Below, one piece after another: positions 4,166 to 10,986 of a stretch of DNA of 35,802 nucleotides. The first letter of the stretch is position 1. Every line of letters starts with the position of its first letter. The notes beneath the pieces are model-generated. The model had not been told where the DNA came from, did no database searches, and saw nothing but the letters and a program-made list of their open reading frames with translations. Made by a program: the position numbers and the translations under genes. This DNA comes from a virus (Duplodnaviria; Heunggongvirae; Uroviricota; Caudoviricetes). The stretch is taken from IMG/VR virus record IMGVR_UViG_2711768064_000002; one strand, 5' to 3'.

Positions 4166-6431
4166 AGCCTCCGGGCGTTTTGTCCCTCCGTCAGCATTTG
4201 CCGCAGGCACCGGTAAGACGTTTACCGGTGCTTATGCATGGAACGCGCCACGCGAGGCTGTCGGGCGCGAAAGACCCCTTACACGTGACGAGATGCGTCA
4301 GGTGCAAGGTGTTTTATCCACGATTAATCGCCAGCCTTACTTTTTGCGCTCGCTGTTTACTTCACGCTATGACTACATCCGGCGCAATAAAAGCCCGGTG
4401 CACGGGTTTTATTTCCTCACATCCACTTTTCAGCGTCGTTTATGGCCGCGCATTGAGCGCGTTAATCAGCGCCATGAAATGAACACCGACGCGTCGTTGC
4501 TGTTTCTGGCAGAGCGTGACCACTATGCGCGCCTGCCTGGAATGAATGACAAGGAGCTGAAAAAGTTTGCCGCCCGTATCTCATCGCAGCTTTTCATAAT
4601 GTATGAGGAACTCTGCGATGCCTGGGTGGATGCGCATGGCGAGAAAGAATCGCTGTTTACGGATGAGGCGCAGGCTCACCTGTATGGTCATGTTGCTGGC
4701 GCTGCACGTGCTTTCAATATTTCCCCGCTCTACTGGAAAAAATACCGTAAAGGACAGATGACCACGAGGCAGGCATATTCTGCCATTGCCCGCCTGTTTA
4801 ACGATGAGTGGTGGACTCATCAGCTTAAAGGCCAGCGTATGCGCTGGCATGAGGCGTTACTGATTGCTGTCGGGGAGGTCAATAAAGACCGTTCTCCTTA
4901 TGCCAGTAAACATGCCATTCGTGATGTGCGTGCACGCCGCCAGGCAAATCTGGAATTTCTTAAATCGTGTGACCTTGAAAACAGGGAAACCGGCGAGCGC
5001 ATCGACCTTATCAGTAAGGTGATGGGCAGTATTTCTAATCCTGAAATTCGCCGGATGGAGCTGATGAACACCATTGCCGGTATTGAGCGTTACGCCGCAG
5101 CAGAGGGTGATGTGGGGATGTTTATCACGCTGACCGCGCCGTCAAAGTATCACCCGACACGTCAGGTCGGAAAAGGCGAAAGTAAAACCGTCCAGCTAAA
5201 TCACGGCTGGAACGATGAGGCATTTAATCCAAAGGATGCGCAGCGTTATCTCTGCCATATCTGGAGCCTGATGCGCACGGCATTCAAGGATAATGATTTA
5301 CAGGTCTACGGTTTGCGTGTCGTCGAGCCACACCACGACGGAACGCCGCACTGGCATATGATGCTTTTTTGTAATCCACGCCAGCGTAACCAGATTATTG
5401 AAATCATGCGTCGCTATGCGCTCAAAGAGGATGGCGACGAAAGAGGAGCCGCGCGAAACCGTTTTCAGGCAAAACACCTTAACCGGGGCGGTGCTGCGGG
5501 ATATATCGCGAAATACATCTCAAAAAACATCGACGGCTATGCACTGGATGGTCAGCTCGATAATGATACCGGTAGGCCGCTGAAAGACACAGCTGCGGCT
5601 GTTACCGCATGGGCGTCAACGTGGCGCATTCCGCAATTTAAAACGGTTGGTCTGCCGACAATGGGGGCTTACCGTGAACTACGCAAATTGCCTCGCGGCG
5701 TCAGCATTGCTGATGAGTTTGACGAGCGCGTCGAGGCTGCACGCGCCGCTGCAGACAGTGGTGATTTTGCGTTGTATATCAGCGCGCAGGGCGGGGCAAA
5801 TGTCCCGCGCGATTGTCAGACTGTCAGGGTCGCCCGTAGCCCGTCGGATGACGTTAACGAGTACGAGGAAGAAGTCGAGAGAGTGGTCGGCATTTACGCG
5901 CCGCATCTCGGCGCGCGTCATATTCATATCACCAGAACGACGGACTGGCGCATTGTTCCGAAAGTGCCGGTCGTTGAGCCTTTGACTTTAAAAAGCGGCA
6001 TCGCCGCGCCTCGGAGTCCTGTCAATAACTGTGGAAAGCTCACCGGTGGTGATACTTCGTTACCGGCTCCCACACCTTCTGAGCACGCCGCAGCCGTGCT
6101 TAATCTGGTTGATGACGGTGTTATCGAATGGAATGACCCGGAGGTCGTGAGGGCGCTCAGGGGCGCATTAAAACACGGCCTGAGAACACCAAACCGTCAG
6201 CAAAGAAACGGAAGCCCGTTAAAACCGAATGAAATAGCGCCATCGGCCAGGCTGACCCGGTCGGAGCGTATGCAAATTACCCGTATCCGCGTTGACCTTG
6301 CTCAGAACGGTATCAGGCCGCAGCGATGGGAGCTTGAGGCGCTGGCGCGTGGCGCGACCGTAAATTATTACGGGAAATCTTTCAATTATCAGGTCGCTGA
6401 TGAGTGGCCTGGATTTTTGTTACCCATTTGA
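4155..6431 (+). CDS. A: Replication initiator A (rolling-circle HUH endonuclease), about 758 aa; ORF opens at 4113
   Basis: Long ORF; HUH-type motif HHDGTPHWHMMLF and downstream GYIAKYISKNIDGY (catalytic Tyr region). Start at MAVKASGRF chosen from recalled P2 gpA N-terminus. Confidence 0.9.
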   Translation: MAVKASGRFVPPSAFAAGTGKTFTGAYAWNAPREAVGRERPLTRDEMRQVQGVLSTINRQPYFLRSLFTSRYDYIRRNKSPVHGFYFLTSTFQRRLWPRIERVNQRHEMNTDASLLFLAERDHYARLPGMNDKELKKFAARISSQLFIMYEELCDAWVDAHGEKESLFTDEAQAHLYGHVAGAARAFNISPLYWKKYRKGQMTTRQAYSAIARLFNDEWWTHQLKGQRMRWHEALLIAVGEVNKDRSPYASKHAIRDVRARRQANLEFLKSCDLENRETGERIDLISKVMGSISNPEIRRMELMNTIAGIERYAAAEGDVGMFITLTAPSKYHPTRQVGKGESKTVQLNHGWNDEAFNPKDAQRYLCHIWSLMRTAFKDNDLQVYGLRVVEPHHDGTPHWHMMLFCNPRQRNQIIEIMRRYALKEDGDERGAARNRFQAKHLNRGGAAGYIAKYISKNIDGYALDGQLDNDTGRPLKDTAAAVTAWASTWRIPQFKTVGLPTMGAYRELRKLPRGVSIADEFDERVEAARAAADSGDFALYISAQGGANVPRDCQTVRVARSPSDDVNEYEEEVERVVGIYAPHLGARHIHITRTTDWRIVPKVPVVEPLTLKSGIAAPRSPVNNCGKLTGGDTSLPAPTPSEHAAAVLNLVDDGVIEWNDPEVVRALRGALKHGLRTPNRQQRNGSPLKPNEIAPSARLTRSERMQITRIRVDLAQNGIRPQRWELEALARGATVNYYGKSFNYQVADEWPGFLLPI

Positions 6432-6690
6432 GTAAAAATGCAGCGTGATTTTATATGCCTTTGAATGGGTTATGCGAAGCGCCTCTAAGGCAGATGAGGA
6501 GCAATAGCATGCTGAAGTAGAAGGCTAAATTGTATTGAATCGCTAGCATGTAATTTAAAGCAGCTATTTGATTCGAGTCATAAAAGAGCATCTATTTCGG
6601 CTAATAAAACCATTGCGAGTGACCTTTTGTCGAAGCATAATTCATCTCGAGCGAAGTCTTGCTAGTCTTTCATCGGAATGATGACAGGCG

Positions 6691-6722
6691 CAAAAAAACC
6701 ACCCTGGCAGGTGGTTTTTTTG
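6691..6722. terminator. Bidirectional rho-independent terminator
   Basis: aaaaaaaccaccctggcaggtggttttttt: GC stem flanked by an A-run and a T-run, so it can terminate on either strand. Confidence 0.7.
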
Positions 6723-6733
6723 TTTGAAGCATA

Positions 6734-6847
6734 CTAAAGAATAATACTTACATGGATATTACTGACGTTTACTGACAAACCACTTGGACTACCATATGGA
6801 TAGCCAAAGAGGGCCAGAACGAGAATGCAGTAATAGCACTTCTTCAT
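6734..6847 (-). CDS. 37-aa hydrophobic small protein (MKKCYYCILVLALFGYPYGSPSGLSVNVSNIHVSIIL)
   Basis: Not in the ORF track (under 60 aa). Preceded by SD-like aggagg (rc of 6851..6856) and followed by the 6691..6722 terminator. Function unknown. Confidence 0.4.
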   Translation of the reverse strand: MKKCYYCILVLALFGYPYGSPSGLSVNVSNIHVSIIL

Positions 6848-7419
6848 ATCTCCTCCTGTAAGCAGAGGGCAATTTCCGCCGATATATGCGCTTCTAAGGC
6901 GGAGTTACTATTTAGCGAAGTCTTGCCCTGAAATAATGCTCTGTTTAAACGCAAAGTGATCTGGCATATCACCGAACAGAGAGCCTGAACAACACAACAT
7001 ATAGTATGTCGTTGTTTCTGGTTGCATTTTATGTTGTGTAATCCTGGTTTTGCATCAAGGATGTTTGAGCTTTTTTTGATATAGCTCAAAGTAAAAAGCA
7101 GAGACTACGGATGATAAGGTATTGAAAGCAATGTAAATTTTTTAAAGTTATTGGCGGCTAAAAAATGCACGGTTTCAATATGGTGGACTTAAATAAGCAA
7201 TTAAAAAAGTCATAAATATCACTAAAATCATGGTGTTACGTTTTTTTTGTGGGAGCTGCGGTGACGCTTAAGTTGATTTGTCATTAAATAAGCCGTGCAT
7301 GCAACAAGTGAATGTTTTTGCATGCGTCGGGGATGCCCGTTCCGGCTGCTTGCGGTCAGAGCTGGTGCGGATCCATAGTATCTATGCAACTGCATTAAAA
7401 CCGCCACATGAAGCGGGCG

Positions 7420-7438
7420 GGCGAGGCGGGGAAAGCAC
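7420..7438. other. cos cohesive-end site (GGCGAGGCGGGGAAAGCAC)
   Basis: Exact match to the 19-nt P2/186 cohesive-end sequence as I recall it; sits between A and Q as expected in the prophage. Confidence 0.8.
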
Positions 7439-7592
7439 TGCGCGCAAAATGTTCTTGAAATATTTGTGACATAAGCTAAGACACAAAATGATTGAAGGGC
7501 AGAGCAAATCCTACAGTCCTATGCTATTGTCTCATGTAATGCAGATAAGTTGAAAATTATCTTAAAATATAAGAGTAAAGACATTAAAAGGA

Positions 7593-9860
7593 TTGGTTAT
7601 GAATAATAACTCTAAGTTATTAAGCTCTATCTCGGTTGAATCTGATTTCGAGAACCTTATAAAACTATATGCAAATGAGTTATTTGGTGGTGAAACATAT
7701 CTGATCGGTGGTCCTTGGGATAATGGAAAGGATTTGGTAATAAAAAAGGGGAATAGAGAGTTAAAGCAAGCTGTACAAATATCTATTCAAGAGAAAAATA
7801 TTGAAAGTAAGATTGCTCAAGATATTAAAAAAGTGGCGAAATTGGTTGATGATCATTATTACCCGCCTGTATTATATTTTTTTTGGAGTCATTCAATATC
7901 TGAGCATTTATTGGATAAGATAAGAACAAATGCTCTTAAGGAAGATTTGATTAGATTGGAGTTTTATGATGCCAAACGGATCTCTCAAGATATTACAGAT
8001 AAATACCCAGGGTTATTGAATTACTTAATAAAAGATATACATAAGATAAGTTCTAATACTGAAGATGCAATTAACTTGCAACAAAGAGCATTTTATGAAT
8101 ATTTATTGTTAAGCAAAGATAGTGCTAATTTAAAAAATGAAATAATAAAAGCTAGTATTATGTCTAATTTATATGATGGCGGGAAGTCTGCTGATGATAT
8201 TCTAGAGAATCTAAAAGGTGTTAGTCTTACAAAACGTAGTTTACAGGGTAGACTGCAAAACCTAATTCATCAAAATAAAATTAGATTGAATGATGGTATA
8301 TATAGCCTGTCACCAGAGGAAATTAAAAAGCTTGAGAATATAAATCTCCGTGAAATTGTCAGAAAAGAAGAGTTGTTATCAGTAATAAATAATGAGTTGC
8401 CCAGAAATACAAGTAAGAATCTGGCTGTTCAAGTTGTTGATTTAATAATAAAGGCTTATGAAGAATCAATAAATGTCCAATTAACAGAAAGTAAATTTGA
8501 GCCTCCAAAATTACAGATATTCAAAACTATAGTACATAATTTAAAGGTGTTGATACGGCAGGAATATGATTTGGATGATGAGTCTTCGGATGCTTTAGCA
8601 AAAAAGCTAATGGAGTTGGCTGGTCAAAATGACTATTTATCCGAGCATTGCTCTGCTAAATTATGTGTGAATCTTTTAAGTGATCGGAAATTAGAGAAAT
8701 ATATTGAAAATAAAAATTTTTATATCTACTTTGATGCGCCTGTTCTTATTCCATATTTGATAACTCTTATGTTTGGAGATTTTGAGCTTTTTGATAAGTC
8801 GATTAAAAATATAAATTTACTGAGAGAGTGCATAAATCCCCTCAAAAATAAACATCTGAGAGTTTCTAATGAACATTTTGAAGAAACTGCAAGGCACTAC
8901 TCTGAAGCTGAAAAATTAAGTCAGTTTGTAACTGAAGATTTAATTAGTCAACTTGGTGAGTCGAAAAATGTATACTTTAATGTTTATATGCGGTGGAAAA
9001 ACAAACAGCCTAAACGTACAGATTTTTACGATTTTACTTATGCTTTTCTAGGGTTGGATAAAGATGATATTTATGCGGGGTATAAGCATGACACATTTGC
9101 GCAATGCATTCATAATTTACTAGCGTCAGCAAATATTGTTGTAATTGATAATAAAGACTCGGTGTCACAAGACTTTGTATTTAAAATAAAGCAAAAACTT
9201 AAAAGGGATTTGAATTCTTCACGTCCCGTTCGAGCCATAGAAAATGATGTTATATGTGCTGCAACTTTGAGTGATGAAACCCTACATCTTGATTCCAATG
9301 GTTACTTCAGTACTCCCATGCTAATAACACTTGATAGATCTCAATATCTATTGAGAAGCATAGTAAGAAATGAAAGGAGACATGCTGAATGGTTGGTTTA
9401 TACCCCTCAAAGAGCAATTGAACGTCTTTCCTTGGTGGGTTTAAAAATATCATCGGAATCGTTAAAGGATGGTGTTTTAGCAACCATATCAGAAGAATAT
9501 TTCTTTAAAGAAAGTTCCAGTAGTTTGATTGATACTTTGGCTATTATCATTGGAGATAATCAAGCAAGGCAAGGAGATGTTATTAGGCTTGCATCGCTTT
9601 TAAAAAGAAAGGTCAATGAGGAATCTATTGAGAATTCAGAAATTGATATTGAACACTATAATAACATTAGTTATGTGCTTCTTTTCATTCATCGTGAATT
9701 TAAATCTGAATTTTCAAATATAATAAAAATTTTTGCTGAGGATAGTAGGCGAGATAAACTGGTTGAAGTTTTGTTATCCACTATTCAAGGAGTTTTTGAT
9801 GAGAGTAAAAAGGAAATCTTGCGCTCAAATATAGGACGGTTGTTGGCTGAAATGGGATGA
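7593..9860 (+). CDS. Cargo protein of unknown function, 755 aa, AT-rich; possible N-terminal PD-(D/E)xK/Mrr-like nuclease fold
   Basis: Long uninterrupted ORF with Lys/Asn/Ile-rich composition unlike the GC-rich phage backbone. Motif weakly similar to Mrr-type nuclease cores: DNGKDLVIKKGNRELKQAVQISIQEK. Possible Rx4H at RNERRH. Confidence 0.85.
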   Translation: MVMNNNSKLLSSISVESDFENLIKLYANELFGGETYLIGGPWDNGKDLVIKKGNRELKQAVQISIQEKNIESKIAQDIKKVAKLVDDHYYPPVLYFFWSHSISEHLLDKIRTNALKEDLIRLEFYDAKRISQDITDKYPGLLNYLIKDIHKISSNTEDAINLQQRAFYEYLLLSKDSANLKNEIIKASIMSNLYDGGKSADDILENLKGVSLTKRSLQGRLQNLIHQNKIRLNDGIYSLSPEEIKKLENINLREIVRKEELLSVINNELPRNTSKNLAVQVVDLIIKAYEESINVQLTESKFEPPKLQIFKTIVHNLKVLIRQEYDLDDESSDALAKKLMELAGQNDYLSEHCSAKLCVNLLSDRKLEKYIENKNFYIYFDAPVLIPYLITLMFGDFELFDKSIKNINLLRECINPLKNKHLRVSNEHFEETARHYSEAEKLSQFVTEDLISQLGESKNVYFNVYMRWKNKQPKRTDFYDFTYAFLGLDKDDIYAGYKHDTFAQCIHNLLASANIVVIDNKDSVSQDFVFKIKQKLKRDLNSSRPVRAIENDVICAATLSDETLHLDSNGYFSTPMLITLDRSQYLLRSIVRNERRHAEWLVYTPQRAIERLSLVGLKISSESLKDGVLATISEEYFFKESSSSLIDTLAIIIGDNQARQGDVIRLASLLKRKVNEESIENSEIDIEHYNNISYVLLFIHREFKSEFSNIIKIFAEDSRRDKLVEVLLSTIQGVFDESKKEILRSNIGRLLAEMG

Positions 9861-9951: not shown

Positions 9952-10986
9952 TTAGGTATCGCAAGTATCTAGTGAGTAGTTTTTAAAGCGGATGACCTCC
10001 TGACCGAGCCAGCCGTTTATCTCGCGGATCCTGTCCTGTAACGGGATAAGCTCATTGCGGACAAAGACCTTTGCCACTTTCTCAATATCGCCCAGTGACC
10101 CGACGTTCTCCGGCTTGCCGCCCATCAACTGAAAGGGGATGCGGTGCGCGTCCAGTAGGTCAGCGGCGCTGGCTTTTTTGATATTAAAAAAATCGTCCTT
10201 CGTTGCGACTTCACTGAGCGGGATAATTTTAATGCCGTCGGCTTTCCCCTGTGGGGCATAGAGAAACAGATTTTTAAAGTTGTTGCGGCCTTTCGACTTC
10301 ACCATGTTTTCGCGGAGCATTTCGATATCGTTGCGATCCTGCACGGCATCAGTGACGTACATGATGTATCCGGCATGTGCGCCGTTTTCGTAATACTTGC
10401 GGCGGAACAGCGTGGCCGACTCATTCAGCCAGGCAGAGTTAAGGGCGCTGAGATATTCCGGCAGGCCGTACAACTCCTGATTAATATCCGGCTCCAGCAG
10501 GTGAAACACGGAGCCGGGCGCGAAGGCTGTCGGTTCGTTGAAGGACGGCACCCACCAGTAAACATCCTCTTCCACCCCACGGCGGGTATATTTTGCCGGT
10601 GAGGTTTCCAGTCTGATGACCTTACCGGTGGTGCTGTAACGCTTTTCCAGAAACGCATTACCGAACACCAGAAAATCCAGCACAAAGCGGCTGAAATCCT
10701 GTTGTGAAAGCCACGGATGCGGGATAAATGTCGAGGCCAGAATATTACGTTTGACGTAAATCGGTGAGCTGTGATGTACGGCAGCACGCAGGCTTTTTGC
10801 CAGACCGGTAAAGCTGACCGGTGGCTCATACCATCTGCCGTTACTGATGCACTCGACGTAATCCAGAATGTCACGGCGGTCGAGTACCGGCACCGGCTCA
10901 CCAAAGGTGAATGCCTCCATTTTCGGGGCGCTGGCGGTGATTGTTTTTGCCGCAGGTTGCGGTGTTTTCCCTTTTTTCTTGCTCAT
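9952..10986 (-). CDS. Q: Portal protein Q, 344 aa
   Basis: Size identical to P2 Q; leftward late operon next to cos; start overlaps P stop. Confidence 0.92.
   Translation of the reverse strand: MSKKKGKTPQPAAKTITASAPKMEAFTFGEPVPVLDRRDILDYVECISNGRWYEPPVSFTGLAKSLRAAVHHSSPIYVKRNILASTFIPHPWLSQQDFSRFVLDFLVFGNAFLEKRYSTTGKVIRLETSPAKYTRRGVEEDVYWWVPSFNEPTAFAPGSVFHLLEPDINQELYGLPEYLSALNSAWLNESATLFRRKYYENGAHAGYIMYVTDAVQDRNDIEMLRENMVKSKGRNNFKNLFLYAPQGKADGIKIIPLSEVATKDDFFNIKKASAADLLDAHRIPFQLMGGKPENVGSLGDIEKVAKVFVRNELIPLQDRIREINGWLGQEVIRFKNYSLDTCDT

Follow-up and report, generated by a model that had tools for sequence, protein, structure and literature searches.

Several type I toxin–antitoxin (TA) systems of Escherichia coli, such as tisB/istR-1, zorO/orzO and shoB/ohsC, share a design in which a small hydrophobic peptide is encoded next to a short small RNA (sRNA) with its own promoter, ~14–18 nt of complementarity between the two transcripts is visible as a direct repeat in the DNA, and the target of the sRNA lies far upstream of the ribosome-binding site in a long structured leader. 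Here, we describe a locus of the same build in a 35,802-nt stretch of viral DNA (IMG/VR record IMGVR_UViG_2711768064_000002, Caudoviricetes; this whole stretch is hereafter the window), which is a P2-like (Peduovirus) prophage. The locus, hereafter the module, lies between gene A and cos, in the gpA–gpQ region known as a defence hotspot of P2 (PMC9122126), and comprises an open reading frame (ORF) for a 37-aa peptide on the minus strand (ORF37) and a predicted sRNA gene on the plus strand, the coordinates of which are collected in Table 1. It is very probably a functional module of an sRNA and a small protein that works through RNA pairing. We further consider it reasonably likely, with less confidence, that the region from ~6600 to 7166 forms a complete cassette of two genes that moves horizontally and belongs to the type I TA kind, with the peptide as candidate toxin and the sRNA as candidate antitoxin.

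ORF37 is a real coding gene under purifying selection. Over all the loci collected, it occurs as 18 protein variants, all of them intact and 37–39 aa long (for example MKRLSYCIILLTLLGYPLGSQSGWSVDISNISVSIVM, MNRVCLCILVLTLFGYPVGSQSGWSIYVSHINVNISL and MNRRHFLCVIVLAVISQLLTGQSNWLINVSQISISISV), with a pairwise ratio of nonsynonymous to synonymous substitution rates (dN/dS) of 0.12–0.41 (median 0.23; among the most distant pairs, dS becomes saturated). Variable sites are distributed over codon positions 1, 2 and 3 as 22/13/33, third positions thus varying most, and the stop codon TAG is changed to TAA in the group at 82% identity. The peptide is small (<60 aa) and hydrophobic (grand average of hydropathy 0.73–0.95), as type I toxins are, and is built of one or two N-terminal basic residues, an apolar segment of 13–16 aa and a tail rich in Ser, Asn, Val and Ile, with a conserved G-x-S-x-(W/L) motif and an alternation of polar and hydrophobic residues in the tail. 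Neither ORF37 nor the other micro-ORFs belong to any family in Pfam, NCBIfam, PHROG or PADLOC, and a HMMER search of a representative protein library (1.84 billion proteins) retrieved relatives of ORF37 at 56–59% identity and nothing beyond them. In the database proteins P0004, P0007 and P0015, ORF37 was called as 88–149 aa by in-frame read-through of the leader (6908–7027, minus strand). These long gene calls were rejected as annotation artefacts; an in-frame stop is present at 6908–6910 in the window, and the T/G polymorphism creating it is the base just before the predicted sRNA-binding site.

On the plus strand, a predicted sigma-70 promoter, in which the −10 is invariant and TTGCG of the −35 is kept in nearly all lineages including those outside P2, would place the start of the sRNA at ~6649, the first base of a repeat (B1, see below). 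The predicted transcript of ~76 nt folds with an energy of −31.9 kcal/mol (z = −5.1) into a 5′ seed, a hairpin (hairpin 2) and a terminator hairpin with a U-run, and this build is kept in nearly all (~14) of 17 sRNA sequence variants. Seed and terminator are almost invariant across these variants, whereas hairpin 2 is wholly different in sequence yet formed in nearly all of them, its arms being, for example, GUCUUUCAUC/GAUGACAGGC, GUCCUAA/UUAGGGC, GUCUUCUUC/GAAGGAGAC and GUCACC/GGUGGC. As hairpin 2 is unalignable, RNAalifold on a MAFFT alignment of the sRNAs is blind to it, and per-sequence folds were used instead; its conserved U·G pairs are possible on the plus strand only and favour this strand. 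The terminator is flanked by A7 and T7, by which it would be able to terminate both strands, and it is invariant in every module lineage, including the lineages found via the protein rather than the terminator. It had been missed by a simple terminator scan, in which the A/T runs were absorbed into the stem. Judged in silico, the locus would therefore encode an sRNA with its own promoter and terminator, as type I systems do. An Rfam scan of 6200–7700 gave no family at gathering score, the matches to RNAI and Phe-leader, both due to the terminator, being below the threshold.

The link between the two genes is repeat B (AGCGAAGTCTTGC), an exact 13-mer at 6650–6662 (B1) and 6914–6926 (B2). It is the sole 13-mer repeat in the interval, such a repeat arises in 1.3% of shuffles of the interval, and within two mismatches it has only these two occurrences in the window. 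Because the two transcripts come from opposite strands, this direct DNA repeat means complementarity of the RNAs. In all seven lineages tested, the best RNAduplex interaction was that between sRNA nt 1–16 and a leader site 65–80 nt upstream of the AUG, and the predicted duplex of 14–16 bp, which gives the sRNA the pairing with the toxin mRNA expected of a type I system, was found in nine of nine lineage variants. Its positions 2–15 form standard pairs throughout, with no pair broken, four pairs changed on both sides and seven cells occupied by G·U wobbles; in slid-register controls, 27–44% of cells pair. Three of the two-sided changes (G–C to A–U, U–A to C–G and G–C to A–U) occur in the L057/L055/L096 lineage and the fourth in L039/L103. 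Wherever one side alone has changed, it has done so by a transition whose direction yields G·U for a plus-strand sRNA against a minus-strand mRNA, which argues against a purely DNA-level repeat.

Another repeat, A, consists of TATGCG and a 14/16 match at 6479–6494 and 6888–6903 across a 5-nt indel, and a local score as high came up in 2.3% of shuffles. We did not accept it as a second pairing block, since its copy A1 is not conserved: A1 diverges in the 82% and 93% identity groups, in which A2 is kept, and is probably chance or relic. An earlier note on this stretch, made from the sequence alone, had reported the 37-aa ORF, the hairpin at 6691–6722 and two recurring blocks, all of which are present where it placed them, and had taken the blocks as one unit in two copies. 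Block B is exact and solid and block A is real but weak; the duplication of A and B as a unit does not hold, as A1 is unconserved and outside the module. RNA folding, which the note had proposed as a check, puts A2 in a covarying stem-loop of the leader, makes B1 the 5′ seed of the sRNA and leaves B2 in a single-stranded linker.

RNAalifold on ten leader variants indicated that the mRNA leader of ORF37 is highly structured. Two stem-loops, SL1 and SL2, are supported by compensatory pairs (Table 1), and the DNA of SL1 is also strongly conserved throughout the lineages. A long-range helix of 6–7 bp was recovered in ten of ten variants with differing sequences (GGGCAA/UUGCCC, GGUGGCA/UGCCACC, GGUGACA/UGUCACC and others), and in a short helix the C-rich stretch (anti-SD) is paired with the Shine–Dalgarno (SD) sequence. 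Because the sRNA site overlaps the 5′ arm of the long-range helix, sRNA binding and this helix would be mutually exclusive, which suggests a structural switch in the modelled leader, the direction of whose effect on the SD we infer as described below.

The promoter region of ORF37 is a homologue of the host promoter of nrdDG, encoding the anaerobic (class III) ribonucleotide reductase. Positions 7049–7166 match the nrdD–treC intergenic region at ~80% identity in 5426 of 5426 E. coli genomes, oriented with transcription toward ORF37, and the alignment extends to 6992, giving a promoter region of 6992–7166. This homology of ~175 bp keeps order and orientation and covers the FNR sites, the −10 and the NrdR probe; the leader and ORF37 have no similarity to the nrdD leader and coding start. 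With a position weight matrix (PWM) built from six E. coli NrdR boxes, no match in the whole window outscored the box at 6992–7007 (19.5 bits, more than any of the training boxes has), and the one at 7024–7039, which overlaps the −10 TAAAAT, ranked sixth (8.9 bits). The FNR-type site TTGATATAGCTCAA agrees with the FNR consensus at 9/10 positions and is among only three such sites in the window, and the half-sites TTGAT and ATCAA are kept in all module lineages. Judged from the −10, the transcription start site (TSS) of the ORF37 mRNA would be near 7019, with FNR-type sites at about −63.5 and −32.5. The FNR sites of nrdDG are reportedly at −64.5 and about −33 from its TSS, with which these positions are in line. 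The similarity to the region upstream of E. coli nrdD (L003 2545–2618) runs ~80 bp past the distal FNR site, and part of this block is kept in other lineages of the module.

The nrdDG promoter likewise has two FNR sites 31 bp apart, a −10 and an NrdR box that overlaps or flanks the promoter (PMC12176259, PMC2892513), and this arrangement of two FNR sites and two NrdR boxes is recovered in the module by homology and motif scoring. A 57-bp nrdDG fragment binds NrdR-ATP/dATP (PMC12176259), and this probe (L003 2449–2505) is covered by the homology, as is the FNR site overlapping an NrdR box that was described for Salmonella (PMC2892513). The copy in the module differs from nrdDG in that it apparently drives a 37-aa ORF instead of nrdD, in a ~10-bp insertion between box and −10, and in its promoter-proximal NrdR box, which is degenerate in the P2 lineage of the module and good in other lineages.

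Conservation peaks from ~6600 to 7166, by which the module is delimited. Positions 6432–7274 recur at 82–99.9% identity in ~149 of 5426 complete E. coli genomes, in P2-like prophages, and at the module the Prokaryotic Genome Annotation Pipeline (PGAP) annotated nothing in these genomes; the module is also found in three sequenced phages. At 72–74% identity, its core occurs on other kinds of element. In an N15-like phage (L015), it adjoins the protelomerase and a CI-like repressor; in inovirus prophages (L039–L041 and L056, Kluyvera), it adjoins secretin, Zot and DUF2523 genes; and in Enterobacter and Leclercia (L055 and L057), it lies between TraI/DsbA-like genes and an integrase. It is further present on 423 plasmids, 394 of them from Klebsiella and mostly conjugative IncFIB/FII, and over all these elements it is hardly ever annotated. 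The sRNA gene and the ORF meet at one terminator in 69 of the 70 loci with enough flanking sequence, and orphans of either gene were not found among them. The 70th locus, in an Enterobacter metagenome-assembled genome (L055 4617–5720), also has both genes, separated by a ~0.9-kb insertion that is bounded by two copies of the terminator. One contig (L100) contained two different module variants.

Within the hotspot, the A-to-Q gap of the E. coli EN-1077 prophage (L004 2278–3360, 1083 bp) consists of the module and cos only, and thus appears empty to gene callers yet carries ORF37 and the sRNA, while in MET_P1_103_31 and "P2DC1" cargo genes lie between the module block and cos. A scan of IMG/VR with an untranslated-region pattern gave no lineages beyond those of the terminator scan. 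The module is not mentioned in the hotspot paper (PMC9122126) nor in a 2026 survey (PMC13586616), and literature text searches by peptide and seed strings had no match. Klebsiella pneumoniae MGH 78578, the strain of a paper using differential RNA sequencing and RNA interaction by ligation and sequencing, was considered as a transcript source, and its plasmid pKPN3 is without the module; a preprint on Pas-sRNA proved unrelated.

Combined with the above analyses, the following scheme can be proposed. A minus-strand mRNA starting at ~7019 would carry a structured leader of ~170 nt, with SL1, the sRNA site, SL2, the long-range helix and the anti-SD stretch, followed by ORF37. The sRNA would be made constitutively from its own near-consensus promoter, both transcripts would end at the one bidirectional terminator, and the first 14–16 nt of the sRNA would pair with the leader 67–80 nt upstream of the AUG. 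Binding could remodel the leader, as expected from the overlap of the site with an arm of the long-range helix, block a standby or entry site, or make a substrate for RNase III, and ORF37 would then remain untranslated. Transcription of ORF37 would be gated by FNR (anaerobiosis) and NrdR (relief at low dATP), so that its mRNA is expected mainly under anaerobiosis or NrdR relief, given the homology of its promoter to that of nrdDG. When the mRNA exceeds the sRNA, or when the element and with it the supply of sRNA is lost, the peptide would be made and the membrane probably damaged or depolarized. Such a function may serve the maintenance of the element, or it may benefit the prophage by arresting growth under certain conditions.

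Table 1. Coordinates of the predicted and observed features of the module and its surroundings in the window
Feature	Position	Strand	Evidence and remarks
ORF37, MKKCYYCILVLALFGYPYGSPSGLSVNVSNIHVSIIL, candidate toxin	6847..6734	minus	SD AGGAGG 6857..6852; coding selection, intact variants
Predicted ~76-nt sRNA, candidate antitoxin	6649..6724	plus	seed 6649–6664 (B1), hairpin 2 6665–6689, terminator hairpin and U-run 6690–6724
Predicted sigma-70 promoter of the sRNA	6613..6641	plus	promoter scan; −35 TTGCGA 6613–6618, 17-bp spacer, −10 CATAAT 6636–6641
Bidirectional intrinsic terminator of the convergent sRNA and ORF37 mRNA	6691..6722	both	A7-CCACC-CTGGCA-GGTGG-T7
Predicted sRNA-binding site in the ORF37 leader (B2)	6914..6927	minus	~67–80 nt upstream of the AUG, between SL1 and SL2
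Leader stem-loop SL1 (CUCUGUU...GGUGAU..AUCAC...AACAGAG)	6981..6939	minus	RNAalifold: 13 pairs, 5 compensatory
Leader stem-loop SL2 (UCCGCC...GGCGGA)	6903..6875	minus	RNAalifold: 8 pairs, 6 compensatory; repeat A2 is one arm
Long-range helix, 5′ arm GGGCAA	6928..6923	minus	5′ edge of the sRNA site, overlaps B2
Long-range helix, 3′ arm UUGCCC	6872..6867	minus	beside the C-rich anti-SD stretch, just upstream of the anti-SD
NrdR-box pair, predicted	6992–7007 and 7024–7039, 16-bp linker	minus	PWM and homology; brackets the predicted −10 TAAAAT 7031..7026
Two FNR-type sites, 31 bp apart	TGGTTTTGCATCAA 7045–7058; TTGATATAGCTCAA 7076–7089	minus	nrdD homology, consensus match
Upstream part of the nrdDG-like region, AAAGTAAAAAGCAGAG..ACGGATGA..ATGTAAATTTTTTAA	7090..7166	minus	K-12 alignment
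Repeat A1	6471..6494		in P2-specific filler, outside the module
cos-proximal flank and cohesive end	7268–7419 (flank); 7420–7438 (19-nt cohesive end)		match to right genome ends; P2 cosR annotated and aligned

Several points weigh against the TA interpretation. The literature searched gave no report of a transcript, a TSS, toxicity or regulation for the module, ORF37 resembles no known toxin family in Pfam, NCBIfam, PHROG, PADLOC or the HMMER search, and its hydrophobic segment of ~13–16 aa is short, with a Ser/Asn/Val-rich tail unlike that of classical type I toxins. The convergent gene arrangement is unlike that of tisB/istR-1, zorO/orzO and shoB/ohsC, the second NrdR box is weak in the window, and the ~10-bp insertion shifts its spacing relative to nrdDG. 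The compensatory changes in the duplex come largely from one divergent lineage, and part of the covariation signal could also arise if two DNA repeats evolved in concert. The atypical peptide, with its short core, its G-x-S-x-(W/L) motif and its alternating tail, also fits a small, non-toxic membrane protein controlled by the sRNA, such as an accessory or lysogenic-conversion peptide that is produced in anaerobiosis or nucleotide stress, is fine-tuned by its own sRNA and might, for example, modulate a membrane complex or act in exclusion. All the structural evidence agrees with such a protein equally well, and the module sits in a known accessory hotspot; nevertheless, a dedicated, tightly linked sRNA in strict co-occurrence with its target is a hallmark of addiction modules, and a presence on five unrelated kinds of mobile element, ~400 large plasmids among them, is unlike niche accessory peptides, which leaves this alternative unlikely, if worth keeping in mind. 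It is improbable that the sRNA acts mainly in trans on host or phage genes, with the ORF37 leader as one target or a sponge among them: although a seed followed by a hairpin and a U-rich terminator is the typical build of Hfq-type sRNAs and the lineages hardly differ in the seed, this seed changes together with the site linked to it in cis, has no further match within two mismatches in the 35.8-kb window, and was never found without ORF37.

That B1 and B2 act as DNA, in the form of operators, recombination sites or iteron-like repeats changing in concert by gene conversion, is very improbable. Gene conversion or a shared DNA-binding protein would also be expected to produce co-changing direct repeats; however, the single-sided differences include no transversions or A·C-type combinations, B1 begins exactly at the +1 of a conserved promoter, with a covarying hairpin and a terminator downstream, B2 occupies the linker between covarying RNA stems, and no DNA-binding protein is encoded in the module. 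Hardly any probability remains for the interval as former cargo that has decayed or left an indel scar, as the earlier note had offered, or as cos-flanking packaging DNA. It does fill the slot of P2 orf91–tin–old, it contains the unconstrained-looking filler at 6432–6566 with A1, and 7268–7419 is truly a cos flank common to P2-like phages; but purifying selection on ORF37 and the RNA covariation contradict decay, and for 6600–7166 the packaging idea is already contradicted by intact modules on plasmids and phages without a P2 cos. A decayed scar or a cos-specific element would not be expected to recur intact, as the module does, in other, unrelated kinds of mobile element. What the same note had suggested besides, a type I toxin-like peptide locus or a small structured RNA, was largely right as far as in silico analysis goes, ORF37 being a conserved coding gene and repeat B the footprint of an sRNA–mRNA duplex; its terminator, bidirectional in build, is common to both genes.

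Going beyond the TA cassette as such, the module could be a suicide or arrest switch gated by deoxynucleotide triphosphate (dNTP) pools and oxygen, serving abortive infection or maintenance in the P2 defence hotspot. Its borrowed NrdR/FNR operator would then let the peptide fire on a collapse of dATP, for instance when a lytic phage takes over the cell or when replication is under stress in the anaerobic gut, as soon as the mRNA is in excess of the constitutive sRNA. We hold this extension to be doubtful.

Regarding the interval around the module, gene A stops at 6431 and the P2 cosR 19-mer (GGCGAGGCGGGGAAAGCAC) forms the cohesive end, while the portal gene Q lies at 10986..9952. When 6300–7600 was compared by blastn with P2 (27500–33593), only the end of A (to 6415) and 7391–7438 (the last 48 bp including cos) matched, and no homology to P2 30316–33380, the orf91–tin–old cargo, was found. 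Because P2 aligns only to 6415 and from 7391, orf91, tin and old are absent here, in agreement with what had been noted earlier for tin and old; likewise, the ~1-kb interval has no long ORF, none in 6432–7419 exceeding 81 aa. The alternative that it is simply conserved noncoding DNA flanking cos applies to 7268–7419 only, which aligns with the right ends of the genomes of 186, SEN1, EtG, P2-like phages of Yersinia and others, and does not apply to the module. The filler between gene A and the module is P2-specific. A terminator-like hairpin with a T-run lies on the plus strand within the last codons of gene A (6389–6412); this hairpin and the bidirectional terminator would between them shield the module from read-through of the early operon. 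An ORF of 755 aa (7593–9860, plus strand, ~30% GC) sits between cos and Q, in an insertion that begins 8 bp past the cohesive end, on the Q side of cos and not the A side. It had no match in Pfam, NCBIfam, PHROG or PADLOC and is likely uncharacterized cargo of the hotspot.

The terminator of the module has a counterpart outside it. Read on the minus strand, 6693–6719 is identical at 27/27 nt to the 3′ stem-loop (kissing SL3 and terminator) of RNAI in ColE1-like small plasmids, so that the terminator hairpin of the plus-strand sRNA is the exact complement of this stem-loop. The match was seen in L064, L066, L045, L074, L023 and ~25 other genome contigs, in which the RNAI genes are bona fide (79–97 bits). 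Most of what the terminator scan of genome contigs returned were ColE1-like small plasmids and contaminant contigs with these 27 nt alone in common, and many of the ~2.5-kb ColE1-like contigs belong to assemblies of Streptomyces, Micromonospora and further unrelated organisms, where they look like contamination. The covariance model of ColE1 RNAI (RF00106) scored 26.2 and 22.3 bits in the window, below its threshold of 47; these weak matches are explained by the identity of the terminator with RNAI SL3, the rest of the module being without a match. The identity might reflect RNA cross-talk with such plasmids or merely a shared, successful terminator, and an effect on the copy control of ColE1-like plasmids, through a hairpin that is identical in the mRNA and complementary in the sRNA, is speculative.

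With the comparative evidence taken together, we think it fairly probable that the module is a new, widespread and unannotated type I TA locus whose promoter is borrowed and unusual. There is an annotation gap in either case, as the cassette was left blank by PGAP in 149 E. coli genomes, on 423 plasmids and in several phage types, and it resides in the much-studied gpA–gpQ hotspot and on large Klebsiella plasmids of the resistance/virulence type. For hotspot surveys, this means that some P2 hotspots scored as empty or short carry the module. Should the peptide be toxic, the module would represent a new type I TA family with a comparatively validated duplex of sRNA and leader, the first such pair wired to NrdR/FNR (dNTP and oxygen) regulation, and a link between the maintenance or defence of mobile elements and nucleotide status.

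Among the known systems, hok/sok is likewise found on conjugative plasmids and prophages, which makes a maintenance role plausible for the module, and likewise has a highly structured toxin mRNA with sequestration of the SD; the mRNA of the module is probably also translationally inert. An identity with hok/sok was nevertheless rejected, because ORF37 has no Hok/Gef domain and the sRNA is laid out differently: the peptide has 37 aa versus ~50 aa in Hok, and the sRNA is not a cis-antisense RNA overlapping a leader or a mok gene. The ralR/ralA pair of the rac prophage (PMC4041452) is likewise a prophage-borne type I pair with a non-overlapping complementarity of ~16 nt, but RalR is a DNase of ordinary size rather than a membrane peptide, and RalA targets the coding region. 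Profile searches (Pfam, NCBIfam, PHROG, PADLOC and Rfam at gathering score) gave no match to the TisB, ZorO, ShoB, Ldr, Ibs, DinQ and Hok families or their sRNAs, and neither the peptides nor the sRNAs of tisB/istR-1, zorO/orzO and shoB/ohsC are similar in sequence to those of the module. The genes of the tisB/istR-1 type are divergent and non-overlapping, whereas those of the module converge on a shared terminator; the former occupy fixed chromosomal sites, whereas the module, with its candidate toxin, travels on phages, integrative and conjugative elements and plasmids. Both would nonetheless answer to stress: tisB is controlled by the stress-responsive repressor LexA (reviewed in PMC4147584 and PMC3919570), and the predicted inputs of the module are FNR and NrdR instead.

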